Source: a virus (Duplodnaviria; Caudoviricetes). Taken from it: 39,774 bases of DNA. The notes below the pieces were generated by a model. The model was given only the letters and a program-made list of their open reading frames with translations, ran no database searches and had not been told where the DNA came from. The position numbers were made by a program, and so were the translations under genes. The stretch covers positions 1 to 39,774 of the IMG/VR virus record IMGVR_UViG_3300017780_003276; one strand, given 5' to 3'. Positions 6,243-28,725 of the stretch are shown in pieces (position 1 is the first letter of the stretch; every line of letters begins with the position of its first letter).

Positions 6243-6662
6243 ATGGCATATTCAGAAAAAGTAATCGATCACTACCAAAATCCAAAAAATGTTGGTACGT
6301 TAGACAAGTCAAGCAAAAGAGTAGGTACAGGCCTTGTAGGAGCACCAGAGTGTGGCGACGTTATGCGTTTACAAATAGAGGTTGATGATGCAACAGGTAT
6401 GATTACCGATGCAAAGTTTAAAACTTTTGGTTGTGGAAGTGCAATAGCATCATCAAGCTTAGCAACAGAGTGGCTTAAAGGTAAAAGTATTGATGAGGCA
6501 CTTACGGTAGATAATATGGATTTTGTAGAAGAGTTAAATCTTCCTCCTGTAAAAATACATTGCAGCGTATTAGCAGAAGATGCTATTAAAGCAGCTATTA
6601 ACGATTACCGTGTAAAAAATGGTAAAGAGGCTATTAAATTTGAGGATAGTTTGGTTCATTAA
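6243..6662 (+). CDS. iscU: Fe-S cluster scaffold protein IscU
   Basis: YSEKVIDHYQNPKNVG, GAPECGDVMRLQI, KFKTFGCGSAIASSS, LPPVKIHCSVLAEDAI. Confidence 0.96.
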   Translation: MAYSEKVIDHYQNPKNVGTLDKSSKRVGTGLVGAPECGDVMRLQIEVDDATGMITDAKFKTFGCGSAIASSSLATEWLKGKSIDEALTVDNMDFVEELNLPPVKIHCSVLAEDAIKAAINDYRVKNGKEAIKFEDSLVH

Positions 6663-6734
6663 TAATCCCTCTGCCCCTAATTAAAAAATTACTTCAATTT
6701 ATAAAAAATTTTTATTGTTTTTGTATATACCTGA

Positions 6735-6743
6735 CTATTTATT
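6735..6743 (+). promoter_or_regulatory. CTATTTATT promoter motif upstream of hsp20-groES-groEL
   Basis: Recurrent motif; extended identity with 14428-14453. Confidence 0.6.
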
Positions 6744-6749
6744 AATACA

Positions 6750-7262
6750 AACAGAGATACGGTAGGTCTCAAGTTATATTAATCATTAACCGCTCACTTT
6801 AGGGGAGCAACAAAAACACAGGAGGTTTATTATGACATTTATTAAAGAATGGGAACTCGATCCCTTTGATCTTCTTTGGAAGAATTTTTTCGACTCAAAA
6901 CCACATTTCACAACACTTATTGACAAAGTTAACTATCCAGTAGACATCTACGAGACGGAAGATGGTATTTACTTTGAACTAGCCGTTGTAGGCTTAGACA
7001 AGGACGATATTAATATTCTAACGGAGAGTGACACGTTACGCATCACATACCACAAAGATCCAGACACCCGTCTATATATCTACAAAGGTATCGCACGCAG
7101 AGCTTTTGACCTGGCTTGGAAGATTGCAAATAAATATGATCTATCAAAGTTAAAAGCTAGCTTAGATAAAGGACTGCTTAAACTAGAAATCCCATATGCG
7201 GATACAAAGCAGCCTAAAAAAATAACAATTAAATAATCAAAAGAGGCCTACCGTAATCTGTT
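6750..7262 (+). repeat. Inverted repeat pair flanking hsp20 (6750-6770 / 7243-7262)
   Basis: AACAGA-GA-TACGGTAGGTCTC pairs with GAGGCCTACCGTA-A-TCTGTT: 13 bp (one U.G) plus 6 bp. Confidence 0.85.
6832..7236 (+). CDS. hsp20: Small heat shock protein (Hsp20/alpha-crystallin)
   Basis: YPVDIYE, AVVGLDKDDI, YKGIARRAF, ASLDKGLLKLEIP, C-terminal IxI (ITI); SD AGGAGGT at 6820-6826. Confidence 0.93.
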   Translation: MTFIKEWELDPFDLLWKNFFDSKPHFTTLIDKVNYPVDIYETEDGIYFELAVVGLDKDDINILTESDTLRITYHKDPDTRLYIYKGIARRAFDLAWKIANKYDLSKLKASLDKGLLKLEIPYADTKQPKKITIK

Positions 7263-7445
7263 ATGTTTAGATATCAATTTTTAAATTTCAATAATAATTT
7301 GTATATTATTAAGAAGCTTATAAAAGAGGATCACGGACCTATCATAGAAGTATGGAAGGAACAGCTCAGAGCAGATACAGTACTTAAAAAGGATGGTATA
7401 TTATACTTCCTTGAATTAGTACCAGAAGCAGTAATTACAAATTAA
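7263..7445 (+). CDS. Hypothetical protein (60 aa) between hsp20 and groES
   Basis: ATG ORF filling the gap in operon orientation. Confidence 0.7.
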   Translation: MFRYQFLNFNNNLYIIKKLIKEDHGPIIEVWKEQLRADTVLKKDGILYFLELVPEAVITN

Positions 7446-7461
7446 AAACAAAATAAAGACT

Positions 7462-7755
7462 ATGGTAAAATTAAAACCCGAAAACGGCTACATTGTATTG
7501 AAGCCAATTGAAGAACGAGAAGAAACCTACGGTAACATTGTTATCCCGGATCTAGGAAAAGAAAGACCTGAGTTAGGTGAAGTAGTTGCAACAAGCGATA
7601 CTTTTAATTGGCACACAGGAGAAATCGTAAGAACTAAACTTACCCCTGGCGCTAAAGTATTAATTCCAAAACTAGGAGCCTCAAGGATTTCAATTAAAGG
7701 AGATGAATTTTTTATTGTAAAAGAACAAGACATTTACGCACAATTAGAAGACTAA
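7462..7755 (+). CDS. groES: Co-chaperonin GroES
   Basis: LKPENGYIVL, mobile-loop TYGNIVIPD, GEVVA, GAKVLIPK, FFIVKEQDI; upstream of groEL. Confidence 0.92.
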   Translation: MVKLKPENGYIVLKPIEEREETYGNIVIPDLGKERPELGEVVATSDTFNWHTGEIVRTKLTPGAKVLIPKLGASRISIKGDEFFIVKEQDIYAQLED

Positions 7756-7770
7756 AAACAAACAGTTATT

Positions 7771-7818
7771 ATGAGTACAACAACAGTATTTGGAATAGAG
7801 CTAAAAAACAATTATTAA
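7771..7818 (+). pseudogene. Relic of a second groEL 5' end (15 codons)
   Basis: MSTTTVFGIELKNNY* resembles GroEL start [16 protein letters not shown]; DNA ggaatagagctaaaaaacaa vs ggaactgagttaaaaaataa. Confidence 0.55.
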
Positions 7819-7837
7819 TAATTAAAAAGAATTACAA

Positions 7838-9502
7838 ATGAGTCACACAGAGTTTTTACAAGGAACTGAGTTAAAAAATAAATTACTAGTAGGTATTAAA
7901 AAGTTAAATCAAGCAGTATCGTCAACGCTGGGTCCTGGAGGTAGAACTGTTTTAATACAGGGGCCTGGTGGAGAGGTTAAGGTAACAAAAGATGGTGTAA
8001 GCTGCGCAAAAGCATTTGGGAAGCTAGAAGACCAAGTAGAAGACTTAGGTGCGCAGTTAGTGAAACAAGTATCAATCAAATCCGCTAATGAAGCGGGTGA
8101 TGGTACAACAACGTCAACATTGCTAGCAGCTACAATGGTGGAAGAGGGATTGAAACTAATTAATCAAGGATCTAACCCAGTAGAAGTTAAAAAGAGTATT
8201 GATAGTTATACCAAACTTGTTATAGAGCAATTAAAAGGGCTCGCTAAGGATGTAGCAACTCAGGAGCAGATTAAAGATGTAGCCACAATATCAGCTAATG
8301 GCGATGTTGAAGTAGGAGAGCTTATCTCAACAGCAATTGAAAAAGTTGGTAGAGAAGGTATTGTGACATTAGAAGAATCTAAAACAGGAGAAACTACATT
8401 AGAGGTAGTAGAAGGTATGCAGTTCGATCGCGGTTACAAATCACCGTATTTTGTTACTAACAATAGTACAATGCAGTCTGTATTAGAGGATTGTTATATT
8501 CTAATCTACGATGGTCGTATTTCAACAGCAGCAGATTTACTTAACGTATTAACAAAGGCTAACTCTGAAAATAAAGCATTGCTAATCATAGCAGATGATA
8601 TTGGTGACGAAGCACTTGCAACCTTAATCGTTAATAAGATGAGAGGTATTGTTAAAGTATGTGCAGTTAAGGCACCAGACTACGGAGACCGTAAAACATT
8701 ATTACTTGAAGATATGGCAATCTTAACAGGTGGTCAAGTTATATCAAGAGATAAAGGTTACAAATTAGATAAACTGACACCAGCTCAACTAACAGGTTTC
8801 TTAGGCACAGCTAGAACAGCAACAGTATCAAAAGACGAAACAACAATTATTGATGGTAGTGGAAAGGAAGAAGCTATTGTACAGAGAGCTGGTGAGATTA
8901 AAGATCAGATTGAAAAAGCAACATCTTTCTTTGAGAAAGAAAAGTTACAAGAACGCTTAGGTAAATTAGTAGGTGGAGTAGCAATCATTAGTGTTGGAGG
9001 TAATTCTGATATTGAGATTAGAGAGAGAAAGGATAGAGTCGAAGATGCATTATTTGCAACAAAGGCAGCCTTAATTGAAGGAGTTGTGCCTGGAGGCGGT
9101 ATTGCATTAATTGAAGCTTTAAACGGCTTATCAACTAACCCAAAAGAAATGTCAGCCGATCAGACAAGAGGGTATGAAATTGTTAAGAAAGCATGCTTTG
9201 CACCTTTTAAAGTAATCTTACGTAATTGTGGCATAGATGACTACTATACAATCCTAAGGAATTTATCTGATAAACAAACTGGTGATGGTAAAGTATTATA
9301 TGCATACAATGCAAAGACAGGTGAAATTGTTGATGCAGCAGCTACTGGATTATTAGATCCAGCAAAAGTAACACGCACAGCATTAGAGAACGCAGCGTCA
9401 GTAGCTGGTACTATTCTAACAACAGAGAGTGTTATCTTTGAAAAGAAAGCAGAGAAAGATAATAACAATGCAGGTATGGATATGATGGGTGGAATGATGT
9501 AA
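7838..9502 (+). CDS. groEL: Chaperonin GroEL
   Basis: [56 protein letters not shown]-type tail. Confidence 0.98.
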
Positions 9503-10260: not shown

Positions 10261-10873
10261 GAGAGGTACTTCATATCTTGATGGTTTTAATTTTTTAACA
10301 AAAAAAAACAAACATGAAAAAAGTAATATTATTATTAGCAGTATCATTAGCTGCATTCGCAAGCGTAAACGCACAGAAGAGTTCACAATTTGTAACTGGT
10401 ACTGTGTCTTACACAAAATCAACAGATATTAAAGCATCTTACAGCATCAACCCTTTAGTTGGTTATTTTATAACTAATAAAGTAGCAGTTGGTGTATTCG
10501 GATCATTTGGAGAAACAGCAACTGCAAAGACTGTAGGTGTAGGTATCTTTACAAGATGTCATTTTTTAACCATCGGTAAAAACTGCCAATTGTTCTCACA
10601 GCTAGACCTTGGTAGTAATTCAGAAAAAAAAGCAGGTGTAAAAGCATCTACAACTGGTGTTAACCTAGGATTAGGTGCTAATTACTCAATTACTAAGAAG
10701 TTAGGACTTACTATACACGTTGCTGATTTAATTTCATACAAAAGCAGCGATGGTAGTTCAACAACAACGATCGGATTTACAGGAATTACAAATCCATTTG
10801 CAGTAGCAAAGTTTGGAGTAATTTACACGTTTTAAGATATACAAAATTATTACAAGGACCTGAGGTACCTCTC
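10261..10873 (+). repeat. Inverted repeat pair flanking the beta-barrel gene (10261-10280 / 10853-10873)
   Basis: GAGAGGTACTTCA/TGAGGTACCTCTC 13 bp (one U.G) plus TCTTG/CAAGG 5 bp (one U.G). Confidence 0.75.
10314..10835 (+). CDS. Outer-membrane beta-barrel protein (small, probably 8-stranded)
   Basis: Signal peptide MKKVILLLAVSLAAFASVNA; alternating amphipathic strands; C-terminal GVIYTF aromatic motif. Confidence 0.82.
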   Translation: MKKVILLLAVSLAAFASVNAQKSSQFVTGTVSYTKSTDIKASYSINPLVGYFITNKVAVGVFGSFGETATAKTVGVGIFTRCHFLTIGKNCQLFSQLDLGSNSEKKAGVKASTTGVNLGLGANYSITKKLGLTIHVADLISYKSSDGSSTTTIGFTGITNPFAVAKFGVIYTF

Positions 10874-10884
10874 AGGTCTTTTTT
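10854..10884 (+). terminator. Intrinsic terminator
   Basis: GACCTGAG-GTACCT-CTCAGGTC followed by T6. Confidence 0.85.
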
Positions 10885-11377: not shown

Positions 11378-11629
11378 ATGGCAAACATTTATTATTTTTC
11401 AACGGAATACTGTGGCCCCTGCAAAATGTTCAAACCAGTAGTACAAGAGGTAATGGGACAAACAGGTAGGTCAGTTCAGTTTATAGATGCACAACATAGT
11501 CCAGAGATGGCAGCAAAGTACAATGTATCATCAGTACCAACAATTATTATTGAAGATGGTCACAACGTAGTTAAACTAGTTGGACCTCAATCAAAAGCTA
11601 AATTAGTTGAATTATTTTCAAATATATAG
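11378..11629 (+). CDS. Thioredoxin-like protein
   Basis: YCGPCK active site, YNVSSVPT cis-Pro motif. Confidence 0.9.
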   Translation: MANIYYFSTEYCGPCKMFKPVVQEVMGQTGRSVQFIDAQHSPEMAAKYNVSSVPTIIIEDGHNVVKLVGPQSKAKLVELFSNI

Positions 11630-11654
11630 AAAAAAGTTGCTAAATAATTAGCAT

Positions 11655-11766
11655 ACAGGAGTGGCGGAAGCAGACAGGTCGACATAGTCTGCAAGTTAGA
11701 CGCTACCAGATGTGGTGGGCATAGGGAAACCGAGCCGTATCGGGGCAGATCCGATCTCCTGTACCA
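11655..11766 (+). ncRNA. Atypical tRNA-like RNA (class II fold, encoded CCA, no canonical anticodon loop)
   Basis: Acceptor ACAGGAG/CTCCTGT+A+CCA; Leu-like D arm GCGG..ACGC with inserted hairpin; T arm ATCGG-GGCAGAT-CCGAT; long variable arm with GAAA loop; GC-rich island. Confidence 0.8.
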
Positions 11767-12147
11767 AGTTACTGTTCTTTGACATAAAGGAGAAATAAAA
11801 CATGAATACACAATTAGCATTTGCTTTTGGTATGCTTGCGATGATTGCTATCGGTATGATGGTAGTGATTGTTGTAGGTATGGTAAAGGTGCACAGACAA
11901 GGAAACAAAATTATATCACTTGAAAAGTGGATTGATGATACAAACATATCTGCAGATCAAAACGTGCAGGTACTAGAACGAAGTATCTCAGAAGAAGTTC
12001 GATCATTACTGAATGAAATCACAGCAGTACACCAGCGAATTAGCGAAGTACACTCTATAATGGATTCACGATTCGATAAGTTCGAAGATAAAATAACAAA
12101 GAAACAAATTTTAAAAGACTAAAAAAATAGTCGAAGAACAGTAACTT
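11766..12147 (+). repeat. Inverted repeat pair flanking ORF 11802 (11766-11783 / 12130-12147)
   Basis: AAGTTACTGTTCTTTGAC pairs with GTCGAAGAACAGTAACTT: 18 contiguous bp, one U.G. Confidence 0.9.
11802..12122 (+). CDS. Single-TM coiled-coil hypothetical protein
   Basis: N-terminal hydrophobic helix then heptad-rich segment; SD-like AAAGGAG at 11786-11792. Confidence 0.8.
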   Translation: MNTQLAFAFGMLAMIAIGMMVVIVVGMVKVHRQGNKIISLEKWIDDTNISADQNVQVLERSISEEVRSLLNEITAVHQRISEVHSIMDSRFDKFEDKITKKQILKD

Positions 12148-14684: not shown

Positions 14685-16127
14685 ATGAAAGAAGGTTATA
14701 TCAAAAAAGCAGATAGGAAAAAGATTCTATTACTATGTGACGACATTAGATTCACATCAGGAATCGCAACAATGGCAAAAGAAATTGTAATAGGCACAGC
14801 TCACCGCTACAATTGGATTAATTTAGGAGCAGCAATCCAACACCCAGAGCATGGGAAACGTTTAGATGTATGCATTGACACAAACCAGGTTACTGGTATT
14901 GATGACTCATCGGTGTTCATATACCCACATAATGGATATGGATCACCTGAGGTAATTAGACAGCTTATTGAGTTTGAAAAGCCAGACGCTATTATATTCT
15001 TTACTGATCCAAGATACTGGATTTGGTTATTTCAAATGGAGAATGAAATTAGGAAAAAAATACCTATGATCTATCTTAATATTTGGGATGACTTACCAGC
15101 ACCACTATATAATAAATCGTATTACGAATCTTGCGATGCTTTAATGGCAATCTCAAAACAAACGTGTAACATCAATAAGATGGTGTTGGGTAGTAAAGCT
15201 AAGGATAAGGTTATTAAATATGTGCCACACGGTATTAACGAAAAAATGTTCTTTCCAATTACAAAAGATAATGCAGAGGAGTTCACAAAACTGCAGGATA
15301 TGCGAAAATCCTTTTTTGGTGATGATCAACCTGAGTTTGTTGTAATGTATAATGCTAGAAACATTAGACGTAAGTGCACATCTGACTTAATAGCTGGATA
15401 TGCTCAGTTCTGTGATAAGATTGGAAAAGAAAAGGCTAAGAAGTGTACACTATTATTACATACGCAACCATTAGATGAGAATGGAACTGACCTACTAGCT
15501 GTAACGGAGTTGTTATGCGATCCGACCTATCAAAGAGTTGTATTCTCAAACAACAAGTTCTCTACCGCAGAGATGAATACCTTATATAATATGAGTGACG
15601 TTGTTACTCTGGTATCATCTAACGAAGGTTGGGGATTATCTTTAACAGAGGGTATGATGTGTGGTAAGATGATTATTGCAACTGTTACAGGTGGTATGCA
15701 AGATCAAATGAGATTTGAAGATGAGAACGGTAACTGGCTAGAGCTTACAGAAGAGCTTCCGTCGAACCATTTTGGAACTTATAAAAAACACGGAGACTGG
15801 GCTGTACCGGTATTCCCAACTAACATGAGTATAGTTGGATCAATACCAACACCTTATATATTTGACGATAGAGCTGATTTTAGAGATGTTGCTATCGCCA
15901 TTGAACAAGTCTACAACCTAACTCCAGAAGAAAGAGCCAAGAGAGGCACAAATGCACGTACATGGGTAACATCAGATGAAGCAATGCAATCAGCTAGATG
16001 GATGTCTAAAAATGTAATAGATACTATCGACACAACCTTAGCAACCTGGAAGCCTAGAAAATCATTTGAGCTTCTTAAAATAGAAAAATTATCAAGAAAA
16101 AAATTAGTACATCCACTTGTTTATTAA
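14685..16127 (+). CDS. Glycosyltransferase, GT-B fold (GT4-like)
   Basis: SGIATMA, YVPHGIN, RNIRRK, SNEGWGLSLTEGMMCG. Confidence 0.9.
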   Translation: MKEGYIKKADRKKILLLCDDIRFTSGIATMAKEIVIGTAHRYNWINLGAAIQHPEHGKRLDVCIDTNQVTGIDDSSVFIYPHNGYGSPEVIRQLIEFEKPDAIIFFTDPRYWIWLFQMENEIRKKIPMIYLNIWDDLPAPLYNKSYYESCDALMAISKQTCNINKMVLGSKAKDKVIKYVPHGINEKMFFPITKDNAEEFTKLQDMRKSFFGDDQPEFVVMYNARNIRRKCTSDLIAGYAQFCDKIGKEKAKKCTLLLHTQPLDENGTDLLAVTELLCDPTYQRVVFSNNKFSTAEMNTLYNMSDVVTLVSSNEGWGLSLTEGMMCGKMIIATVTGGMQDQMRFEDENGNWLELTEELPSNHFGTYKKHGDWAVPVFPTNMSIVGSIPTPYIFDDRADFRDVAIAIEQVYNLTPEERAKRGTNARTWVTSDEAMQSARWMSKNVIDTIDTTLATWKPRKSFELLKIEKLSRKKLVHPLVY

Positions 16128-16149
16128 TAAAAAATTAGTATAGTATAAT

Positions 16150-17427
16150 ATGAAACAGTTTTGCGTTATATCAGCACCACCAGATACGTATAGTGGATAC
16201 GGTGCAAGAAGTAGAGATTTTATTAAAGCTTTATATGAAGTTAAAAAAGATGAATGGGATATTGTAATTATACCACAAAGATGGGGTAGTACTAATTGGG
16301 GATTCATAGATAATAATATTGAAGAGTGGGGATGGATGAAAGCCTTATTCGTAACCCAACAGATTAAACAGCCTGATATATGGATTCAGATAACAGTACC
16401 TAATGAATTTCAGCCCGTAGGTAAAGTTAATATTGGAGTTACAGCAGGTATTGAAACAACCCTATGTGATCATAGTTGGATAGAAGGTGTTAATAGAATG
16501 AATGTTACATTAGTATCATCTAACCATGCCAAGATAGTATTTCAGAGTTCAACGTTTGATCAGAAGGATCAACAAGGCAATGTTGTTAGCAAATTAAAAT
16601 TAGAAAAACCCATTGAAGTTTTATTTGAGGGTGTTGATCTAAATAAGTATTTCTATATTGATGGTATGGAATTAGACGGTACAGATTTAGTACAGTCGTT
16701 AGATACAATAAGTGAAGAGTTCTGCTACCTGTTTGTTGGTCACTGGTTACAAGGTGAGCTTGGTCAGGATAGAAAGGATGTTGGTATGTTAATTAAAACA
16801 TTCTTAGAATCATTTAAAGGTAAGAAATCTAAACCGGGCCTTATTCTAAAAACATCATCAGCAACATCTTGTATAATGGATAGAGATGAAGTGTTAAAAA
16901 GAATAGATGCCATCAGAAGTATGGTAGGGGATAGTGATTTACCGAACATATATTTACTACACGGTGATTTAGAAGATGCTGATATTAATAATTTATACAA
17001 TCACCCAAAGGTAAAAGCCATGTTGTCATTTACTAAAGGTGAAGGTTACGGTAGACCACTTGCAGAGTTTTGCTTATCAAAAAAGCCAGTAATAGCGTCG
17101 GCATGGTCAGGACACATGGACTTTCTAAGCCCAGAGTTTACAGTACCGTTAGCAGGCGAAGTGAGACAACTACACCCATCAGCAGTCGTACAAAACATGC
17201 TTTTACCAGAATCAGGATGGTTTACAGTAGACTACAAAGCTGCGAGTAAAATACTAGTAGATATGTATGAAAATTATAGTAAGTATGAGGTAGGTGGTAA
17301 ACGACAAGGACATAAAATTAAGACAGAGTTTTCATATGATAACATGGTCTTGTTTCTAAAACAGTACACTGATAAGTATGTGCCTAAGCAAGTGCAACTT
17401 ATGTTACCTAAACTTAAAAAATTATAA
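16150..17427 (+). CDS. Glycosyltransferase, GT-B fold (GT4-like)
   Basis: SGYGARSR, DRKDVG, KGEGYGRPLAEF. Confidence 0.88.
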   Translation: MKQFCVISAPPDTYSGYGARSRDFIKALYEVKKDEWDIVIIPQRWGSTNWGFIDNNIEEWGWMKALFVTQQIKQPDIWIQITVPNEFQPVGKVNIGVTAGIETTLCDHSWIEGVNRMNVTLVSSNHAKIVFQSSTFDQKDQQGNVVSKLKLEKPIEVLFEGVDLNKYFYIDGMELDGTDLVQSLDTISEEFCYLFVGHWLQGELGQDRKDVGMLIKTFLESFKGKKSKPGLILKTSSATSCIMDRDEVLKRIDAIRSMVGDSDLPNIYLLHGDLEDADINNLYNHPKVKAMLSFTKGEGYGRPLAEFCLSKKPVIASAWSGHMDFLSPEFTVPLAGEVRQLHPSAVVQNMLLPESGWFTVDYKAASKILVDMYENYSKYEVGGKRQGHKIKTEFSYDNMVLFLKQYTDKYVPKQVQLMLPKLKKL

Positions 17428-17431
17428 CTAT

Positions 17432-17662
17432 ATGCAACCAAATGATTTTATTCAGTGGCTAAGAGGATTTATTGAAGGTGTACATGACTTTAACGTTACA
17501 CCTAAGCAGTGGGATGATATAAAAGATAAACTGGATACTGTCCAACACTCTGAAAAGGGTACTTGGCATACACTAGACAGTAATAACTGGAATACCACAA
17601 CTACAAACAATTACGCAGACGTAACATATAAAACAGATGTACCAACAACAAATACAATATGA
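17432..17662 (+). CDS. Hypothetical protein (start moved to ATG 17432)
   Basis: MQPNDFIQWLRGFIEG; ATG just after upstream stop. Confidence 0.7.
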   Translation: MQPNDFIQWLRGFIEGVHDFNVTPKQWDDIKDKLDTVQHSEKGTWHTLDSNNWNTTTTNNYADVTYKTDVPTTNTI

Positions 17663-18111
17663 ATAAGGACCAATTAACAACCTGTCCTAAATGTGAATGT
17701 GATGGGTGCTATACGCTACCGATTAACGAGACAAAGAATAGTTACTTTTGCTGGGGTTGTGGTTTCCAAACCAACGACTTAATGAAAATAGGAGACTTTG
17801 ACTTTGAGGAATACGAAGAAGTAGTACCAGAACTATACAAGGATATTAAGCACGTAGATGACGATAAGAGAGTTTGGTATCCTATAACAATAAACTTAGA
17901 AACTAAGGGAACAGTCTTTGCTTACGGTAAGTCTGAGGATAATTGGGAATGGGCTGCTATTAAAGCAATACCGTTAACTGAAGTGGAAAAGGATGAACCT
18001 AAATACAAAGGAGTCAGTTATAAATCAGATGCTAAATCATTTAAGCAGTTTGGACAAGACTTTATTGAAGCATGTGATTATATTGGGTTATTTGAAAACC
18101 AGCAACAATGA
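17659..18111 (+). CDS. Hypothetical protein with N-terminal zinc finger
   Basis: CPKC...CWGCG; ATGA overlaps. Confidence 0.78.
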   Translation: MNKDQLTTCPKCECDGCYTLPINETKNSYFCWGCGFQTNDLMKIGDFDFEEYEEVVPELYKDIKHVDDDKRVWYPITINLETKGTVFAYGKSEDNWEWAAIKAIPLTEVEKDEPKYKGVSYKSDAKSFKQFGQDFIEACDYIGLFENQQQ

Positions 18112-18731
18112 TAAGAATAAGTTATGCAATAACAGCATGCAACGAGCATGTTGAATTAGAAAGACTATTAGATCAACTCAACGAACACATAAGACCGGAT
18201 GACGAGATCGTAGTACAGTTAGATAGTACAGCAACTAAGGAGGTAAAAGCAGTAGCTGAAAAATATAACGTAGTAACCCACTATGAATATCATAGAATAA
18301 CCTACAGCCTTAATAATGATTTTGCTGCGTTTAAAAACAATTTAAAGGATCACTGCACAAGAGAGTTTATAGTCTTTATAGATGCTGACGAATACTTCTC
18401 AGAAGAACTTATATTAAGTCTACCAGAGCTCGTAAATCTAAATTACAACGTAGACTTATTCCTAGTACCAAGAATTAATACTGTTGAAGGATTAACACAA
18501 GAGCATGTTAACAAATGGAAATGGCATGTTAATCAAGATGGATGGGTAAACTATCCGGATCACCAAACTCGTATTGTTAAGAATACCTCTAAAATAAAAT
18601 GGGTAAATAAAGTACACGAGAGACTGGTCGGTGCTGAAAGAATAACGACCTTACCTGAAGGGTATGATTTAATTCATCCAAAAACAATAGACAAACAAGA
18701 AAAACAAAATAACTATTACGAAACTTTATAG
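18108..18731 (+). CDS. Glycosyltransferase family 2
   Basis: ISYAITACNE, FIDADE (DxD), YPDHQTR, KVHE. Confidence 0.88.
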   Translation: MIRISYAITACNEHVELERLLDQLNEHIRPDDEIVVQLDSTATKEVKAVAEKYNVVTHYEYHRITYSLNNDFAAFKNNLKDHCTREFIVFIDADEYFSEELILSLPELVNLNYNVDLFLVPRINTVEGLTQEHVNKWKWHVNQDGWVNYPDHQTRIVKNTSKIKWVNKVHERLVGAERITTLPEGYDLIHPKTIDKQEKQNNYYETL

Positions 18732-18734
18732 ATT

Positions 18735-19346
18735 GTGAATATAACAGGAATATCTCTCGGATGGAACTGCAGTCCAGCAGGATACGGAGTAGAAAATGGA
18801 ATACGAGCACAAAAAGCTAGTGGATACCAAACATGTCCATTTGATGAAATGGTAACTAACTTACCAGGAGTGCTTGAATGCATTGCTGATGACTTTAAAT
18901 ATTTCATGGACAGTAGCTATCTTGAACTTATACAAGCTCCATTTACTACAGGAGGAATAGTACAAGGGGAAATACTACTGCACAACACTAGGTACAATTT
19001 TTTCTTTAACCACGAATCACCAGGTCATGCAGGATTGTATGCATCTCAGAACTGGCAAGGAGGTATAAACCACTATCTTGACAACGACTTTGCATTACTA
19101 AAAGAAAGGTACAATAGGAGAGTTAGTAATTTTAGGAACTATATTAACAGTGGAGATGGGATAGCTTTTATTGTAGCTAGATTTAATGCAGACTTTACAC
19201 AACTGCATGAAGTACTATCCAAAACATACCCCACCTTACAGTATGATATCTATCAAATGATACCACCAGAAGGTAAAGAAGTAGTAGCTCAGCACTATAC
19301 AATAATGCAACTACAAGATGATATTATTAATTTAGAATTGCAATAA
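18735..19346 (+). CDS. DUF1796-like (putative papain-like) protein
   Basis: ISLGWNC, TCPFD, FNHE, RYNRRVSNF pattern. Confidence 0.6.
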   Translation: MNITGISLGWNCSPAGYGVENGIRAQKASGYQTCPFDEMVTNLPGVLECIADDFKYFMDSSYLELIQAPFTTGGIVQGEILLHNTRYNFFFNHESPGHAGLYASQNWQGGINHYLDNDFALLKERYNRRVSNFRNYINSGDGIAFIVARFNADFTQLHEVLSKTYPTLQYDIYQMIPPEGKEVVAQHYTIMQLQDDIINLELQ

Positions 19347-19347
19347 G

Positions 19348-21264
19348 ATGTATAAAGTAGTACACAAACCGTGGGGAAAGGAAGAGTGGTTAGCATTGAA
19401 TGATGCTTACTGTTATAAAAGAATTTATATTAACACAGGGTACAAGACTAGTTACCAGTACCATCAATTTAAACAAGAGACCAATTACATTATAGATGGA
19501 ACTGCTGAAGTGTGGTTAGAAAATGATGAAGGAGTGGTAGAGAAAAAGATAATGGGACCTGGCGAGTTCTTTAATGTTAATCCACCAAAGAAGCATAGAG
19601 TTATAGCCATTACCGATATCATACTACAAGAAGTATCAACTCCACACGTAGATGATGTTTTTAGGATTGATGATGAATTTAATAGAGTTGATGGAAAAGT
19701 AGAGGCTGAACATAAGACGCCTGCAGTTTTAATATTGGCAGCAGGAATAGGTAGTAGGTTGAAAGACTTAACAGTAAGTGTAAACAAGGCTATGCTACCT
19801 ATTAATAACAAAGCTATCATTTCTTACATCATTGATAAGTTTCCAAAAGAGTACGACTTCGTTATAGCATTAGGATATAAAGGAGAGGAATTAAAACAAT
19901 ATTGTGAGATAACACATCCACAACATAAATTCACTTTTATCAACGTAGACAAGTACAAAGGAAAGGACTCAGGTCCAGGATATTCATCACTACAGTGTAA
20001 GGAATATTTACAACGTCCATTCTACTTTACTGTGGTAGATTGTTTAATTGATACTAAAATACCACACTTGGATGGGAATTGGTTAGGAATTTATCCTACA
20101 GCATATCCAGAGAAGTATTCAACAGTTAAGGTAGATGACAATGGAAATATACTAGACTTCCTAGGAACAAGTACGAAAGGATATGATAATGCTTTTATAG
20201 GTTTGGCTAGTATATGGGATTACGAAATCTTCTGGAATGAATTAGAATCTAATATAAAGAATGGAGAAATTGTTACAGCATTTACAAATTCAGATAAATA
20301 TCCTTCATTCAAAGCAAAACATTTAAAATGGCTAGACACAGGTAACTTGGATGACTTAAGTAAAACCAGAGAGTACTACAAAGATCAACCTATATCTTTA
20401 TACAAAATAACTGACGAGATAACCTATAAAGAAAATAAGTTCATCAAATTTAATCCAGATACTAACTTTATTAAAAACAAAGCTACTCGAGCTGATTTAT
20501 TGAAAGACTTAGTACCATCAGGGTTTACAAATACAGACCACTTCATCAGCTACGATTGGGAAGCGGGAAGCACTTTGTATAAATTTGATTCAGTAGCTCT
20601 ATATAAAGTTTTCTTAGAAAAACTTGGCAAAGTTATATATAAATCAGAGAAGTCTGAAGGAAGTCGAGATCTATTTGAAAAATTTTATATTGATAAAACT
20701 CAGCAAAGAAGAGAAAAGTTTTTAAGTAGGTTTGGTACGAGATACTTTACGAACAAGTATATAGTTAATGGAAATAGCTACGATTCTTTTAAGAACATCT
20801 TAAGTAGGGTAGATATGGAGCCATTATACAACAGTACAGTGTACACACTCTTCCACGGAGACCTTCAGTTTGATAATATAATATACTGTCCAGAGACGGA
20901 GAAGTTTACGTACATTGATTGGAGAGAGTCTTTTGGAGGATCAACAGCGGCAGGAGATATTTACTACGACTTGGCTAAGTTGTACGGAGGATGTATTATA
21001 CCATACAACTTAATGAAAGATGAGAACTCAATCAAACTTTCAGAAGGCTCAACAGTAGTTGAATATTCATACAAAGTAACAAACAGTCTCCAGCACTTTA
21101 GAGTAGATTACGAAAAGTGGCTTATTGCAAATGGATTTGATTTGACAAAAGTCAAGTTAGTCACAGCTCTTATCTATCTAAACATGTCACCTCTTCATGA
21201 TGAGAAGTTTGGAAAAATGTTATGGTTTAAGTCACTACAACTATTTGATGAACTTAGTAAATAA
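19348..21264 (+). CDS. Three-domain fusion: cupin + sugar-nucleotidyltransferase + APH/choline-kinase-like phosphotransferase
   Basis: KPWG..SYQYHQFKQE..HRV (cupin); ILAAGIGSRL..NKAML, WLDTG (NTP transferase); FHGDLQFDNI, YIDWR, YDLAKL (kinase). Confidence 0.85.
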   Translation: MYKVVHKPWGKEEWLALNDAYCYKRIYINTGYKTSYQYHQFKQETNYIIDGTAEVWLENDEGVVEKKIMGPGEFFNVNPPKKHRVIAITDIILQEVSTPHVDDVFRIDDEFNRVDGKVEAEHKTPAVLILAAGIGSRLKDLTVSVNKAMLPINNKAIISYIIDKFPKEYDFVIALGYKGEELKQYCEITHPQHKFTFINVDKYKGKDSGPGYSSLQCKEYLQRPFYFTVVDCLIDTKIPHLDGNWLGIYPTAYPEKYSTVKVDDNGNILDFLGTSTKGYDNAFIGLASIWDYEIFWNELESNIKNGEIVTAFTNSDKYPSFKAKHLKWLDTGNLDDLSKTREYYKDQPISLYKITDEITYKENKFIKFNPDTNFIKNKATRADLLKDLVPSGFTNTDHFISYDWEAGSTLYKFDSVALYKVFLEKLGKVIYKSEKSEGSRDLFEKFYIDKTQQRREKFLSRFGTRYFTNKYIVNGNSYDSFKNILSRVDMEPLYNSTVYTLFHGDLQFDNIIYCPETEKFTYIDWRESFGGSTAAGDIYYDLAKLYGGCIIPYNLMKDENSIKLSEGSTVVEYSYKVTNSLQHFRVDYEKWLIANGFDLTKVKLVTALIYLNMSPLHDEKFGKMLWFKSLQLFDELSK

Positions 21265-21859
21265 GGATACTAAAATATACTGTTCCTTTTCCTCTAATCC
21301 AGGAAACAATGGATGCGTGTACTTCAATACTAAGTTCCAACAGAATGGAATAAATGCAATTTACAAATCATTCTACTCAGATAACATAGAGAAGTCTGTG
21401 CAAGCTGTGAAGAGTTTAGGTATAGTAGGGTTTGCTGTTAGTATGCCATTTAAGGTAGAAGTACTTAAGTATGTTGATGACATGGACATATCAGTTAAGG
21501 AGATTGGAGCAGCCAATACAATTCTTAATGTAGATGGATATCTAAAAGCATACAACACAGATTGGTTAGGAGTGAGTAAGTACTTAACATTACCTCCAAA
21601 ACACCTAAGTATTTTAGGTGATGGGGGTTTTAGTAAAGCTGTACAATATGCTTGCAAGTCTCTACAAACTGAGTATGCAGTGTATACAAGAGAGCACTGG
21701 CACAAAGTCTCACAGTTAACAGGAGTAGTCTTCAACGCAACCCCAGTAGACGTACAAGTAGAAGGGGACCTTATAGATGGAAGACCATTTACAGTAACTG
21801 GTAAAGCTATTGCTGAGTTACAAGCAGAAGAACAATTTAAACTTTATACAAATGAGTAA
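21248..21859 (+). CDS. Shikimate dehydrogenase-like protein (SdhL-type), compact; start moved to ATG 21248
   Basis: NKDT.., IYKSF, AVSMPFK, GAANTI, AYNTDW, ILGDGGFSKAV, NATP. Confidence 0.8.
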   Translation: MNLVNKDTKIYCSFSSNPGNNGCVYFNTKFQQNGINAIYKSFYSDNIEKSVQAVKSLGIVGFAVSMPFKVEVLKYVDDMDISVKEIGAANTILNVDGYLKAYNTDWLGVSKYLTLPPKHLSILGDGGFSKAVQYACKSLQTEYAVYTREHWHKVSQLTGVVFNATPVDVQVEGDLIDGRPFTVTGKAIAELQAEEQFKLYTNE

Positions 21860-22838
21860 CATAAAATACTTTATAGGTCCAATGACCAAAAATGTAGTAG
21901 ATGCTATATTAGAATATTCAAATAAGTCGGGAAATATAATAGGACTAATCCCTTCGAGAAGACAGGTTGAGTTCGATGGTGGGTATGTTAACAACTGGAC
22001 CACAGAAGAGTTTAGTAAATACATTAGATCCACTCCAAGCAATACAGTACTAAAAAGAGATCACTCAGGACCAGGACAGGGACAGTCGGATGATGATGGT
22101 TACCAATCCCTATCAGAGGATTGTAAGTATTTAGATTTAATTCATATTGATCCTTGGAAAAAGTATCCTGCTTTTAATTTAGGATTAAAAGAGACTATCA
22201 AAATGATTGAACATTGTTATGATTTGAATCCTAGTATAGAATATGAAGTGGGTACTGAGGAAGCTATAAGAAGATTTGAACCTTATGAATTAGATGAATT
22301 GGTTTCTCAATTAAAATCTAAATTAGATTCTGAAGTATTTGCAAAAATAAAATACCTAGTAATACAGTCAGGCACTTCTTTAAAAGGAAATATTCAAACA
22401 GGAGCTTACGATAGTCAGAGGTTACTAGACATGGTGGCAGTGGCTAAAAAGTATAATTTAATTTCTAAAGAACACAATGGAGATTACATACCTGTACATA
22501 TTATTCATGAAAAATTTGAATTAGGACTTGATTCAATTAACATTGCTCCTGAGTTTGGATTAATTGAAACGCAAACATATCTAGATCAAATGGAGGAAAA
22601 TGGTGAGGATTTTATAAATTATTGGCAAATATGTTATGACTCTAATAAATGGGTAAAGTGGGTAGACAATGGATTTGATCCAATAGCACGTAAAAAAGAA
22701 CTAATACAAATATGTGGACATTATGTATTATCTAATACATCTTTTGTTGCTATTAAGAAAAAATATCCGTATATTGATAATATCATTAAATATAATTTAT
22801 TAAATAAGCTTTACCAACTACATGGACAATCGACCTAA
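21852..22838 (+). CDS. KbaZ/GatZ-like TIM-barrel (tagatose-phosphate aldolase/epimerase family); start moved to ATG 21852
   Basis: IGPMTKN, SRRQVEFDGGY, RDHSGPG, IHIDP, YEVGTEE, KEHNGDY, NIAPEFG. Confidence 0.75.
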   Translation: MSNIKYFIGPMTKNVVDAILEYSNKSGNIIGLIPSRRQVEFDGGYVNNWTTEEFSKYIRSTPSNTVLKRDHSGPGQGQSDDDGYQSLSEDCKYLDLIHIDPWKKYPAFNLGLKETIKMIEHCYDLNPSIEYEVGTEEAIRRFEPYELDELVSQLKSKLDSEVFAKIKYLVIQSGTSLKGNIQTGAYDSQRLLDMVAVAKKYNLISKEHNGDYIPVHIIHEKFELGLDSINIAPEFGLIETQTYLDQMEENGEDFINYWQICYDSNKWVKWVDNGFDPIARKKELIQICGHYVLSNTSFVAIKKKYPYIDNIIKYNLLNKLYQLHGQST

Positions 22839-23178
22839 AACAATAATCTGCGACATAGACGGAACATTATGCAAGCATAAAATTCCTACCTTAAACACAG
22901 CACCACTACCACTAGAAGTACTCCCAGGAACCGTAGAGAAATTATCAGAGTGGGATGCAAAAGGATACAACATCGTTTTAATTACAGGCAGGAGAGAGTC
23001 CATGAGAAAGACTACCGAGCAACAATTGGCTGAAGCTGGAATCTTTTATGATCAATTAGTAATGGGAGTTGGCGGAGGAGCTAGAATCTTGATTAATGAC
23101 AATAAGCCTGATGGAAAGCAAGCAGCAATGTGTATTAATCTTCAACGAAACATAGGAATTAGTAATATTAATATATAA
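22822..23178 (+). CDS. Small HAD-family phosphatase
   Basis: CDIDGTL, ITGR, LINDNK. Confidence 0.85.
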   Translation: MDNRPKTIICDIDGTLCKHKIPTLNTAPLPLEVLPGTVEKLSEWDAKGYNIVLITGRRESMRKTTEQQLAEAGIFYDQLVMGVGGGARILINDNKPDGKQAAMCINLQRNIGISNINI

Positions 23179-23184
23179 ATAAAC

Positions 23185-23859
23185 ATGTTCATAGTACCGT
23201 GTAAATATATCGAGGGCAGAAGCCTCATCAGAGAGTGCATCGAATCAATAAGGACACACCACCCAGAAGAAATGATAGTGGTGGTGGACTCTAACTCAGA
23301 CGATCTTTCCTATTTTGAATATCTAGAACAAGTTTCTAATGTAGTAATATGTAATAAGAAAAATCCAAACTACATTATAGGTGCTCTATGGAAAGCATAC
23401 GAAATGTACCCAGACGAACATCACTACGTACTTATTCACGATACTATTATACTCAAGAAGCCATTGGATAGGTTCTTACACGACGAAGAGACCTACTCCT
23501 TTTTGTACTTTGATGAGCATCCACCTAGTGCTGAAAATCAAGCGATACTCGATAGATTTATCCTACCTAACTACACACACCCTCTAGAAACTCCGTTACT
23601 GGGAGTGTGGGGAACAGCAGCTATTTTGAAAAATAGTATAGTAAAAAAATTCATAGAGATGAATTTACATAATAGCTATCTTCCAAATAATAAGATAGAA
23701 TGCCATATGTCAGAAAGAGCATTAGGTGTATTGCTTGCTAAGGAAGGCATAGACTTTGTAACTAACTGTGTGGAACAAAAAAACTGCTTAGTACATTGGG
23801 GCAATATGTTCGATAACGGATTTGATTATATTAGAAAAGTAATAACAATAAGAGATTAA
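23185..23859 (+). CDS. Glycosyltransferase-like (GT-A)
   Basis: CIESIR, VVVDSNS, LIHD, ERALG. Confidence 0.7.
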   Translation: MFIVPCKYIEGRSLIRECIESIRTHHPEEMIVVVDSNSDDLSYFEYLEQVSNVVICNKKNPNYIIGALWKAYEMYPDEHHYVLIHDTIILKKPLDRFLHDEETYSFLYFDEHPPSAENQAILDRFILPNYTHPLETPLLGVWGTAAILKNSIVKKFIEMNLHNSYLPNNKIECHMSERALGVLLAKEGIDFVTNCVEQKNCLVHWGNMFDNGFDYIRKVITIRD

Positions 23860-23861
23860 TT

Positions 23862-25136
23862 ATGAAATTTATACAAGTAGGAGCACACGTAGGTAATGAT
23901 GAAGCATTTGACATTATTAAGAACTATGATATTGAACTAGGAATACTTATCGAACCATTACCACAACTAGTACCCAAGCTACAAGAAGCTTACAAAGGTA
24001 TTCCAAATATAGTTATAGAGAATAAAGCAATTGCTGTTGATAGTAGTGATAGCATTTCTTTTTATGTTGATACAAAAGATCCAATCACTGAGCTAAGCTC
24101 TATGAACAAGCAACACCTACTGGAACACAAAGTAGAGGAGAAGGACATCCAGGAGATAAAAGTGCAGACAGAGACATTGGAAAGTATTTTAGATAGATAT
24201 AATATTACAGAACTAGATTACTTATTTATAGATACTGAAGGATTTGACTGTGATATTTTAAACTCCTTTGATATGAGCAGGTATAAAATTCACAATATAA
24301 TCTTTGAGGATATTCATGCTGATGGTACGGGTCTGAGGGGTCTGAAGTATAGTACTGTGGTGCGGAAGCTAGAATCAGAAGGATATAGAGTAGAGAAGTA
24401 CAGTAACAATAATACTAGATGCAAACTAGACACCACCCTACACATACTATACAGAATATCAGATAGTGGCTATGCAAAAGTAAAACCTTCCTACATAGGC
24501 AATGAACCTTGTTTAAAAAATGCAATAGATAGATTTCCACCTAGTAAATTTAATTGGACAGTTATTGCTGATAATGTATCGGAAGATACTGCAAGGATGA
24601 TCGAAAAGTATGTAGATAAGGATAGCATACAACATGTAAGTATAGGACATGGAGCAGGTACCTTTAATATAGCTTTGGATCAAGCACTTGGTAAAGATTC
24701 TAAGGATATTGTATACTTCTTAGAGAACGATTACCTACATAGAAAGGGCTCTTACCAAGCTGTAATAAGTGCTACAAAGACACTATCACCATCTTTCATC
24801 TCTCTATACGACCACCCGGATAAGTATATGGATCCATCTATAGGTGGTAATCCATACTGTGAAGGAGGAGCAGAGGATACTAGAGTTTATTTAGTAGGAA
24901 ATGCTCACTGGAAGATAACAAATTCAACTACAATGACATTTGCAGCAAGAGTAGAAACTCTAAAAAGAGTTGAGCCTACTTTAAGAAAGTGGACAAATAC
25001 ACCACATCCTCATGATTTTGAAATGTTCATAGAACTAAGAGAACAAAACGAAATATTAATAACATCCATACCAGGATACTCCACTCACGGAGAAACACAA
25101 TGGTTAGCCCCAACTATTGACTGGAGTAACCAATAA
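23862..25136 (+). CDS. FkbM-family methyltransferase fused to a GT-A domain
   Basis: IQVGAHVG, LIEP, IDTEGFD; C-half YFLENDYLH. Confidence 0.82.
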   Translation: MKFIQVGAHVGNDEAFDIIKNYDIELGILIEPLPQLVPKLQEAYKGIPNIVIENKAIAVDSSDSISFYVDTKDPITELSSMNKQHLLEHKVEEKDIQEIKVQTETLESILDRYNITELDYLFIDTEGFDCDILNSFDMSRYKIHNIIFEDIHADGTGLRGLKYSTVVRKLESEGYRVEKYSNNNTRCKLDTTLHILYRISDSGYAKVKPSYIGNEPCLKNAIDRFPPSKFNWTVIADNVSEDTARMIEKYVDKDSIQHVSIGHGAGTFNIALDQALGKDSKDIVYFLENDYLHRKGSYQAVISATKTLSPSFISLYDHPDKYMDPSIGGNPYCEGGAEDTRVYLVGNAHWKITNSTTMTFAARVETLKRVEPTLRKWTNTPHPHDFEMFIELREQNEILITSIPGYSTHGETQWLAPTIDWSNQ

Positions 25137-25142
25137 TCTATT

Positions 25143-25874
25143 ATGAAAACATTAGTAACAATACTACACTATAACACACCAGAGTTAACAGATAATCTAT
25201 ACGAAACACTAAAGCCGTACGAAAAGGATGTATATGATTTAGCAATTATAGACAATGGTTCACATGCTGATAAGAAAAGCAAATATGCCTCGTATGAATT
25301 AAAGCAGAATTACTTCTACGGAGGAGGTGTAAGCACTATCCTAGAGATGTTCCTAGACTCCCCTCAGTACGATTCGGTAATGATATTAAACAGCGATATC
25401 ATATGTCACGGTGAGGATTATGTCAAAACACTAAGAGATGAACTATTCTCAGGAGACTTTATGATAGTATCCCCTTGCATACTAGAGCCCTATCTAGGAA
25501 ATCAAACTTGCTGGAAACCAATGAGACCTTGGCATACTAATACAACTAGGCAAGTACCTTGGATTGATTTTCAAGCTCCTTTAATGCAACGTAAGTTTGT
25601 AGAAACTCTACATCCTATTGATTTGCAACTAGTATATGGATGGGGCATAGATATACTATCTGGAGTACTTTGTGAAGAGAATAACTGGAAGATAGGAGTA
25701 TGTGACAAAGTACCGTCTGTACACTTAATCAGCCAAACAATAAAACAAAACCCAGAAGAACTTTCAGAGGTAAATAGTTTAGCAGAAAAAAACATGTTTG
25801 AATATTTTGAAAAGATAAATAAATATCCTAACTTTATAGATATGAGAACTAGATCTTTTAATTATGAAATATAA
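25143..25874 (+). CDS. Glycosyltransferase family 2
   Basis: ILHYN, IIDNGS, LNSD, YGWGID. Confidence 0.82.
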   Translation: MKTLVTILHYNTPELTDNLYETLKPYEKDVYDLAIIDNGSHADKKSKYASYELKQNYFYGGGVSTILEMFLDSPQYDSVMILNSDIICHGEDYVKTLRDELFSGDFMIVSPCILEPYLGNQTCWKPMRPWHTNTTRQVPWIDFQAPLMQRKFVETLHPIDLQLVYGWGIDILSGVLCEENNWKIGVCDKVPSVHLISQTIKQNPEELSEVNSLAEKNMFEYFEKINKYPNFIDMRTRSFNYEI

Positions 25875-26028
25875 TACATTAGCAACTTTACACATCATGT
25901 GGTATGAGAGTGAGATGATGAGAGAATTTGTATATGTGGAGGACGCAACACCAGCGTGTGTATCTTTAATGAATAGTTCGTATATTGGATCATACAACTG
26001 TCCTACGAGTGGTACAAACAAACTTTAA
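25864..26028 (+). pseudogene. Chimeric 54-codon deletion scar (GT N-terminus fused to fcl fragments)
   Basis: TLHIMWYE ~ TLHVMWYE of ORF 26918; MREFVYVEDATPACVSLMNSSYIGSYNC ~ fcl MREFVYVDDVASACISLMNSTHTGSYNC. Confidence 0.8.
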
Positions 26029-26037
26029 CTAAATAAT

Positions 26038-27790: not shown

Positions 27791-27794
27791 AAAC

Positions 27795-28715: not shown

Positions 28716-28725
28716 AATAAATAAG

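Follow-up and report, generated by a model that had tools for sequence, protein, structure and literature searches.

A Phage RNA on a Leucine-tRNA Body with a Palindrome-Tipped D-Loop Hairpin and a Predicted Self-Pairing Dimer

Locus and Fold of the RNA

The window, which is the whole stretch of DNA that was analysed, comprises 39,774 nt (positions 1 to 39,774 of IMG/VR record IMGVR_UViG_3300017780_003276, Duplodnaviria; Caudoviricetes). It is a piece of a large phage that encodes DNA polymerase A, an IscU-like protein, Hsp20, GroES/GroEL, a pyrimidine-dimer glycosylase, and many glycosyltransferases. The closest polymerase is that of Flavobacterium phage immuto 2-6A (55% identity), in which the gene order is partly alike. 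The public runs that hold the window stretch are lake or aquatic samples, with small shares. From the polymerase and the provenance of these runs, we infer a Bacteroidota host. The phage-borne IscU/NifU-like protein, Hsp20, GroES, and GroEL are encoded at 6243-9502, and about 16 kb of glycosyltransferase, methyltransferase, and nucleotide-sugar genes extend over 14685-30743, a kind of cluster that is similar in phage immuto.

A noncoding RNA gene on the forward strand (11655-11766) lies in the gap that separates a thioredoxin ORF (11378-11629) from an unannotated ORF of 106 amino acids (11802-12122). The RNA is 112 nt long including CCA and has a tRNA-Leu frame folded as a five-arm cloverleaf, an assignment made from homology, covariation, and fold. 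The 5′ strand of the acceptor stem, ACAGGAG (11655-11661, with A1-U72 and C2-G71), pairs with CTCCTGT (11756-11762), and the 3′ segment (11756-11766) continues with the discriminator A73 (11763) and an encoded CCA (11764-11766). U8, G9, the 5′ strand of the D stem (G10-G12), G13, A14, and A15, the Levitt partner of U48, occupy 11662-11669, and the D stem joins GCG (11664-11666) to CGC (11701-11703). A hairpin of 6 bp is inserted between A15 and position 18 (11670-11692). Its strands, GCAGAC (11670-11675) and GTCTGC (11687-11692), enclose an 11-nt loop (11676-11686) that contains the palindrome GUCGAC (11678-11683), the predicted site of self-kissing in a dimer. The remaining D loop, with A18 at 11694, G19 at 11695, and an A20-type A at 11698, is followed by the 3′ strand of the D stem (together 11693-11703). 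The anticodon arm is reduced to 5 bp and a 4-nt loop, GATG, without an anticodon (11704-11717). The segment 11718-11738 holds the variable arm proper (11718-11736), which is long and has an internal loop and a GAAA cap, and then one unpaired G and U48. The T arm (11739-11755) has the stem 11739-11743/11751-11755 and the loop G54 G55 C56 A57 G58 A59 U60 (GGCAGAT). An earlier sequence-only reading of this DNA had already placed the acceptor, the D arm with its 6-bp insert, the reduced anticodon arm, the variable arm, and the T arm where they are described here. It did not notice that the D-loop hairpin has a self-complementary tip, which is the most informative feature.

The window RNA folds with a minimum free energy of -38.4 kcal/mol (z -2.0, an energy matched by 7 of 200 shuffles), and the five-arm cloverleaf scores -35.9 kcal/mol, at most 2.5 kcal/mol off the minimum. 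Folding energy by itself is modest support, and homology is the decisive evidence for the predicted RNA gene. With the covariance model R1, whose training set included it, the window RNA scores 94 bits. ARAGORN reports no gene in the whole window. The window RNA has no Rfam match at the gathering score and nothing relevant at E ≤ 10, and members from 17 other loci belong to no Rfam family, two of them giving sub-threshold tRNA scores of about 25 bits. The checks by ARAGORN and Rfam that the earlier reading had called for thus matched neither a canonical tRNA nor a known family. It is very probable that 11655-11766 encodes a real, non-decoding RNA.

The surroundings of the gene have features of their own. 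An 18-bp inverted repeat (11766-11783/12130-12147, forward strand) encloses the downstream ORF and begins at the final CCA base (11766). This ORF has a hydrophobic N-terminus and no Pfam match, and tblastn with it found no cultured phage. In 12 of 14 relatives, a stem of 15-20 bp with altered sequence surrounds the homologous ORF, mostly directly after a tRNA, a tmRNA, or the mimic RNA. The 5′ arm of the ORF-enclosing repeat contains GTTCTTTGAC, which we take to resemble boxA or an rRNA-processing stalk, and its similarity to the beginning of Rfam DUF2693 reaches 15 bits, far under threshold. A terminator-like hairpin at 10854-10881 has the palindrome GGTACC in its loop region, and two more GGTACC-tipped hairpins are found in genome G003. 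GroEL also flanks the mimic RNA in loci L071 and L221. No promoter signal above chance was found for the RNA. Four RNA runs leave 11614-11715 uncovered in their assembled contigs, in which RNA ends or levels are not visible, and one RNA contig covers 11752-12048 at 100%, as an assembled contig that shows neither the RNA ends nor their level. Relatives are present in two runs that are probably of DNA.

Extent of the Family

Homologues were sought with two viral-contig pattern scans, one metagenome scan, one prokaryotic-genome scan, and a wider protein-anchored scan. D-stem letters were prescribed in the patterns, along with some letters of the acceptor or T loop that differed by scan, so that invariance at these positions is partly built in. 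A covariance model trained on 28 members scored the candidates, with ≥60 bits as the family threshold, and ordinary tRNA-Leu reach about 52 bits at most with this model. At least 85 matches lie at ≥60 bits, which correspond to at least 60 distinct sequences and at least 32 clusters at 85% identity. L327, the window's own sequence, and L342, whose 3′ end is cut off, were left out of the counts, and the misparsed L282 was left out of the T-stem counts. A looser parser gives at least 81 distinct RNAs with a D insert in at least 42 clusters, 15 of these clusters being more distant.

The downstream protein offers a separate way into the family. A search with this protein alone gave 14 loci, and in 6 of them a homologous RNA lies ≤800 bases upstream. 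The 13 distinct members from protein-anchored loci keep the same frame with small changes and have A73 in 12 of 13, the parser having required part of the frame. Among 185,579 bacterial and archaeal genomes, 18 pattern matches were found, of which 3 score with the model. One is a core member on a contig of a Flavobacterium MAG, another is a distant variant, and the third has a normal D loop. The pattern used for prokaryotic genomes fixed G55, and members with U55 escape it. Patterns fixing the window's own T loop gave 0 matches in one scan, and 34 matches from another such pattern had no cloverleaf on inspection; on later parsing, one of these, L037, proved to be a distant long variant.

Blastn of three members against GenBank phages returned nothing meaningful. 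Phage immuto 2-6A has no match by pattern or by model, the model search being weak since it scored no candidates. The lack of a match in the nearest cultured phage indicates that this phage group can do without the RNA. No description of this RNA was found in a search of listings and abstracts from a literature with few subscription journals. The homologues form a real and conserved family of phage tRNA-Leu mimics that is apparently previously undescribed, and the covariance model and phage search that the earlier reading proposed have recovered homologues with covariation.

Genes for tRNA or tmRNA are found in 58 of 75 family loci and in 39 of the 46 loci of ≥3 kb, and ARAGORN finds none in the window itself. 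The mimic RNA is also retained in a 93%-complete phage whose other tRNA-type genes are a tRNA-Gln and a tmRNA only. Because it is kept in this tRNA-poor phage and stands without tRNA neighbours in the window, the mimic is not merely array filler. One copy is present in each of four of five viral records searched whole; the match in the fifth, L072, fits the pattern and is not a member. A scan of 84 neighbouring proteins, of 118 listed, revealed no conserved partner gene. Phage tmRNA genes with unusual tag peptides lie 120-630 bases from the RNA in L001, L002, L004, L071, L106, L123, and L177.

The same phages carry other Leu-frame RNAs, which have a normal D loop, a common AGTCAGG-type acceptor, and very variable anticodon and variable regions (L008 1897-2024, L006 2321-2427, L010 2197-2315, L123 3262-3373, L007 2629-2711, L485, and L496). 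A 137-nt variant has a D hairpin without palindrome together with G18G19/UUC (L050 351-488, L054 2996-3132, and at least about 40 similar loci). It is near-identical across many contigs that resemble gut phages.

Conserved Core and Elbow

Across the 28 aligned sequences, pairing is complete (100%) in the acceptor stem and 99% in the T stem, with double-sided changes at 9 of these 12 pairs. Pairing is 99-100% over the acceptor, D, and T stems, and 19 of 26 modelled pairs have changes on both sides. Double-sided change cells number 126 compared with 48 in shuffles, none of 500 shuffles being as high, and 87% pairing is observed compared with 38-44% when partners are slid. Canonical tRNA-Leu features are present, namely A73 (32/32 clusters), A15-U48 (31/31 clusters, A14/A15 and the AGAC letters being part of the search patterns), an A20a-type A, and a long variable arm, which bears a GNRA cap in 29 of 32 clusters. 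C2-G71 is common in the family, and A1-U72 occurs in 23 of 31 clusters compared with 1 of 20 neighbouring tRNA-Leu.

At the anticodon position, the predicted arm loop measures 3, 4, 5, 6, 7, and 8 nt in 4, 16, 5, 4, 1, and 2 clusters, respectively, and no triplet is common to these loops. A loose test for a 5-bp stem, 7-nt loop, U33, and R37 is passed by 2 of 32 clusters, whose triplets are unrelated. With its 4-nt loop, the window copy lacks the canonical arm of a 5-bp stem, a 7-nt loop, U33, and a Leu anticodon. The covariation, the conserved elbow, and the lack of a conserved anticodon bear out the earlier description of a non-decoding, tRNA-Leu-like mimic.

The elbow departs from the canonical G18-U55 and U54-A58 pairs, which in the window are A18/G55 and G54/G58, and G55 is found in 27 of 31 clusters. 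Ordinary tRNAs from the same loci have UUC in 122 of 123 cases. Across 42 clusters, which are not independent and in which position 18 was assigned by rule, G18 occurs with U55 in 13 and with G55 in none, and another base at 18 occurs with G55 in 25 (20 A, 4 C, and 1 unassigned) and with U55 in 4. The window has G at both partners of the 54-58 pair, and an identical T arm is present in L361 and L391. G54-G58 can reportedly substitute for U54-A58 in a functional tRNA, according to the Steinberg laboratory. The odd T loop goes together with a changed D loop, and two further phages have it too; it appears to be a compensated elbow and is not decay. The sequence-only reading was right that GGCAGAT departs from TTCRANY, and its remodelled loop is better seen as this elbow. 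Natural elbows with A/C18-G55 and G54-G58 offer a test set for the requirements of RNase P, LeuRS, and EF-Tu.

These observations bear on whether the locus is a disguised intron-containing tRNA or a decaying tRNA-Leu pseudogene. The body is of Leu type, some members stand in tandem with tRNA-Leu, and two clusters pass the loose anticodon-arm test. However, removal of the D hairpin restores no anticodon, the first-arm loops stay at 3-8 nt with 7 nt in 1 of 32, and no Rfam intron matches, which speaks against an intron-containing canonical tRNA, the refuting case that the earlier reading had named. Decay is contradicted by compensatory changes across all stems, by covariation of the 18/55 pair, and by the unusual T arm that is unchanged in two other phages, and here too the earlier argument against random decay is upheld. 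Either origin is extremely improbable and largely refuted.

The T stem mostly lacks G51-C63, a strong EF-Tu pair that is present in 2 of 31 clusters compared with 17 of 20 neighbouring tRNA-Leu. Just 56 of 123 ordinary tRNAs of all kinds have the pair, so its absence is informative only against tRNA-Leu. Such an RNA could serve as a dedicated leucine carrier, charged by LeuRS, avoiding EF-Tu, and donating to a non-ribosomal transferase such as an N-degron enzyme of L/F type or a lipid, glycan, or cell-wall enzyme, with the dimer stabilising or channelling it. According to section 12 of PMC9976931, E. coli LeuRS requires A73, A15-U48, and A20a and can dispense with the anticodon and variable arms. 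The mimic retains A73 and A15-U48 throughout and the A20a-type A, and the common C2-G71 likewise favours a carrier. The EF-Tu-weak T stem and non-GG D loop are as in the non-proteinogenic tRNA-Gly of S. aureus, whose escape from EF-Tu is marked by A51-U63 and the loss of G18G19 (PMC4052509). The many glycan-modifying enzymes encoded in the window and a tRNA-Leu gene immediately upstream in 5 of 29 mapped loci agree with this role. On the other side, G18:U55, G19-C56, and U54:A58 matter for leucine identity in E. coli (PMC9976931, same section), but most members have A/C18-G55 and the window copy has G54 and G58. The frequent A1-U72, so rare in neighbouring tRNA-Leu, speaks against a carrier as well, no transferase is found among the scanned neighbours, and a donor has no evident need to dimerise. 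A leucine carrier is on balance unlikely.

The 3′ end and the position of the gene raise another explanation. CCA is encoded in 3 of 32 clusters compared with 19 of 123 ordinary tRNAs of the same loci; the encoded CCA noted earlier is present in the window copy and is not a trait of the family. Under a processing or stability tag, the tRNA shape would draw RNase P and RNase Z, whose cuts in the phage transcript would release the following mRNA; the 18-bp stem would then clasp the ends of this mRNA, and the hairpin would protect or tether the piece. The mostly unencoded CCA is compatible with such a tag, and in many loci the RNA directly precedes a stem-enclosed ORF, a tRNA-Met, or a tmRNA, standing alone in the window. 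Maturation enzymes read the top half and elbow of tRNA, and these are the best-conserved parts of the mimic. However, ordinary tRNAs, most of which here also have no encoded CCA, occupy the same position with the same job in other relatives, and a tag leaves the switching palindromes, the GNRA cap, and the invariant A73 unexplained. This role is improbable.

A Self-Complementary Hairpin Tip

The loop of the inserted hairpin was examined for a centred tetramer that is a Watson-Crick palindrome and has two or more G/C. Such a tetramer is present in the D-hairpin loop of 30 of 32 clusters and in the anticodon-arm loops of 3 of 32 of the same RNAs (Fisher p 3e-12; the clusters are related, and p-values therefore overstate independence). 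In 3000 rounds, redrawing the loop letters gives a mean of 6.8 clusters (maximum 16), and shuffling within the loop gives a mean of 12.7 (maximum 23). The palindrome is found in 55 of 60 distinct sequences, 45 of 50 clusters at 95% identity, and 13 of 14 at 75% identity. Eleven hexamers occur among the 32 representatives: GUCGAC, UGGCCA, UUGCAA, AGUACU, GUGCAC, UGUACA, UUCGAA, GCUAGC, ACCGGU, AUGCAU, and AUCGAU. On a loop-free tree, which is weakly resolved with 19 of 29 inner branches open, the central tetramer changes 16 times, where the minimum possible is 6. In several members, the stem reaches a 4-nt palindromic loop, and the inner bases are unable to pair within one molecule.

Selection for self-complementarity at the hairpin tip is demonstrated at the level of sequence. 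Kretsch et al. (bioRxiv 2024.12.08.627333) hold that palindrome switching supports intermolecular kissing loops, which were seen by cryo-EM in OLE L9.3 and GOLLD L21a. Because the palindrome of the mimic likewise switches among hexamers, a homodimer is predicted, and the RNA probably forms this self-pairing dimer. A single protein that binds the tip is unlikely because the palindrome words are so many and so different. Extended-duplex energies, which were computed with no shuffled control and carry no weight here, are -13.5 kcal/mol for the window, -3.6 and -8.0 for the two palindrome-less clusters, and -8.0 to -20.7 for the others. The prediction is specific: the 110-nt RNA would self-associate by a 6-base word, a two-base change would abolish association, any other palindrome would restore it, and variants with different palindrome words should not mix.

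The palindrome has boundaries within the wider family. It is lacking in 2 of the 32 core clusters, and among the 15 more distant D-hairpin clusters it is present in 4, at chance level, with the large gut-phage group among those that lack it. In a sister lineage, the variable arm is tipped with GUAC in 9 of 10 sequences whose D loop is normal, and 3 of 3 D-hairpin sequences are palindromic at the D hairpin and none in the variable arm. The palindrome of this lineage is in the variable arm (L430 1228-1351, L432, L438, L440, L441, L443, L446, L452, and L457) or in the D loop (L436, L476, and L168), never both. The cluster of L102, L120, L156, L313, and L332 has no D-tip palindrome and has CAUG at the tip of the arm in the anticodon position, and L326 has both.

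A module of this kind could also belong to an RNA scaffold, in which the kissing loop and GNRA cap build GOLLD/ROOL-like assemblies for organising or storing phage RNAs, and the tRNA body is a stable chassis only. GOLLD and ROOL, phage RNAs encoded close to tRNA islands, assemble by kissing loops and A-minor contacts (bioRxiv 2024.12.08.627333), the variable arm of the mimic is GNRA-capped in most clusters, and the palindrome sits in different arms in the sister lineage. Against a scaffold, the single symmetric contact that is evident yields a dimer, two larger genomes show no second noncoding hairpin with the palindrome of the RNA (in a crude scan that missed the RNA's own tip), and neither GOLLD nor ROOL is found in genome G003. 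A scaffold is decidedly improbable.

Proposed Role

The reading preferred here, to which a probability of about 0.45 is given, is that the phage RNA is built on a leucine-tRNA body and homodimerises through its palindrome-tipped D hairpin into a two-headed tRNA decoy outside translation. Host RNase P, 3′ trimming, and the CCA-adding enzyme would mature the mimic like the surrounding tRNAs. The hairpin tip would then pair with a second copy as a symmetric kissing loop or an extended duplex. The partner would be the RNA itself because all four records that hold it have one copy each. Exclusion of the RNA from EF-Tu and the ribosome may come from its weak 51-63 pair together with the altered elbow and the added arm. 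The two tRNA-shaped heads could give the dimer avidity for a host protein able to recognise the shape or the acceptor ends of tRNA, for which a defence enzyme that attacks tRNA is the likeliest candidate.

A decoy, rather than a donor, tag, or scaffold, takes up about half of the remaining probability and is the weakest step of the mechanism. A bivalent decoy is favoured because the RNA has shed its decoding parts, has left some LeuRS elements (it departs from G18:U55 and U54:A58 and keeps A73 and A15-U48), and has gained a valency that a donor or tag does not need. According to PMC11455837, those tRNA-attacking defences that have been studied best cleave in the anticodon loop, and phages are known to counter anticodon nucleases with a decoding tRNA that resists them. 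Since the mimic has no anticodon loop, a decoy would have to act through the elbow or acceptor end. The fuller proposal of a class of homodimeric tRNA mimics, in which a strain-specific kissing hairpin on the elbow and a translation-avoiding T stem make a bivalent trap for defence enzymes or a synthetase, is tentative and somewhat unlikely. If true, it would amount to a counter-defence made of RNA alone and would give the first case in nature of a tRNA-shaped RNA that evolved to dimerise.

Comparison with Known Systems

The mimic resembles class II tRNA-Leu (RF00005) in its 7/5 acceptor/T stems, Leu-type D stem, A73, A15-U48, and long variable arm. It differs in having no anticodon loop, a D-loop hairpin of 20-30 nt, A/C18-G55, A1-U72, and mostly no G51-C63, and it scores under the RF00005 threshold. 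Two other classes of structured RNA were rejected. Bacterial Y RNAs (YrlA/YrlB) have an acceptor closed by a loop and a Ro60 gene nearby, and the mimic has no Rfam match to them, an open acceptor with a discriminator, and no TROVE domain among the scanned proteins. tmRNA, for which G3-U70, a missing D stem, and an mRNA-like domain were the test features, does not fit the intact D stem and the A3-U70 found in 22 of 28 members, and separate tmRNA genes lie beside the RNA. Identity with allo-tRNAs or selC*, unusual cloverleaves from metagenomes and phages with 8/4 or 9/3 stems (Mukai et al., PMC5389517), is likewise rejected, since all aligned members have 7/5 acceptor/T stems; the portion of PMC5389517 searched makes no mention of 'D-loop' or 'E-arm'.

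The non-proteinogenic tRNA-Gly of S. aureus is comparable to the mimic in its A51-U63 pair, lost G18G19, and weak EF-Tu binding (PMC4052509), but has a normal cloverleaf with an anticodon and a known acceptor enzyme, the Fem proteins.

Closer in setting are the non-decoding RNAs in phage tRNA clusters, RNA1, RNA2, RNA3, RNAI, III, and IV of T5 (NC_005859) and rnaC/rnaD of T4 (NC_000866), annotated as 'stable RNA' or 'tRNA-like stable RNA with unknown functions'. T5 RNA1 shares the Leu-type D arm. The extra mass of these RNAs is in the anticodon or variable region, whereas that of the mimic is in the D loop, and model R1 gives at best 17 bits on them (T5 RNA1) and no score for rnaC/rnaD. The mimic would work like the T5/T4 stable RNAs, is built differently, and is not homologous to them. 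The tRNA-like stable RNAs of T4/T5 are still without a known job, and tRNA finders skip such genes.

The dimerisation initiation site of HIV-1 is a hairpin loop with a 6-nt palindrome and purine flanks. The loop of L061, AA-GUCGAC-A, resembles it, although the HIV-1 site is of unrelated origin and part of a retroviral genome, whereas the mimic is a tRNA body.

OLE, GOLLD, and ROOL have symmetric kissing loops and palindromes that switch between homologues, as predicted for the mimic, and GOLLD and ROOL lie near phage tRNA islands (bioRxiv 2024.12.08.627333). These RNAs are several hundred nt long with many bridges, and the kissing loops of OLE and GOLLD were seen by cryo-EM, whereas the mimic is 100-125 nt and tRNA-shaped, with one evident bridge and a dimer predicted from sequence. 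The mimic RNAs match no OLE, GOLLD, or ROOL Rfam model. If the prediction is true, phage tRNA mimics possess quaternary structure, which would link them to the GOLLD/ROOL/OLE multimers and offer a route to function.
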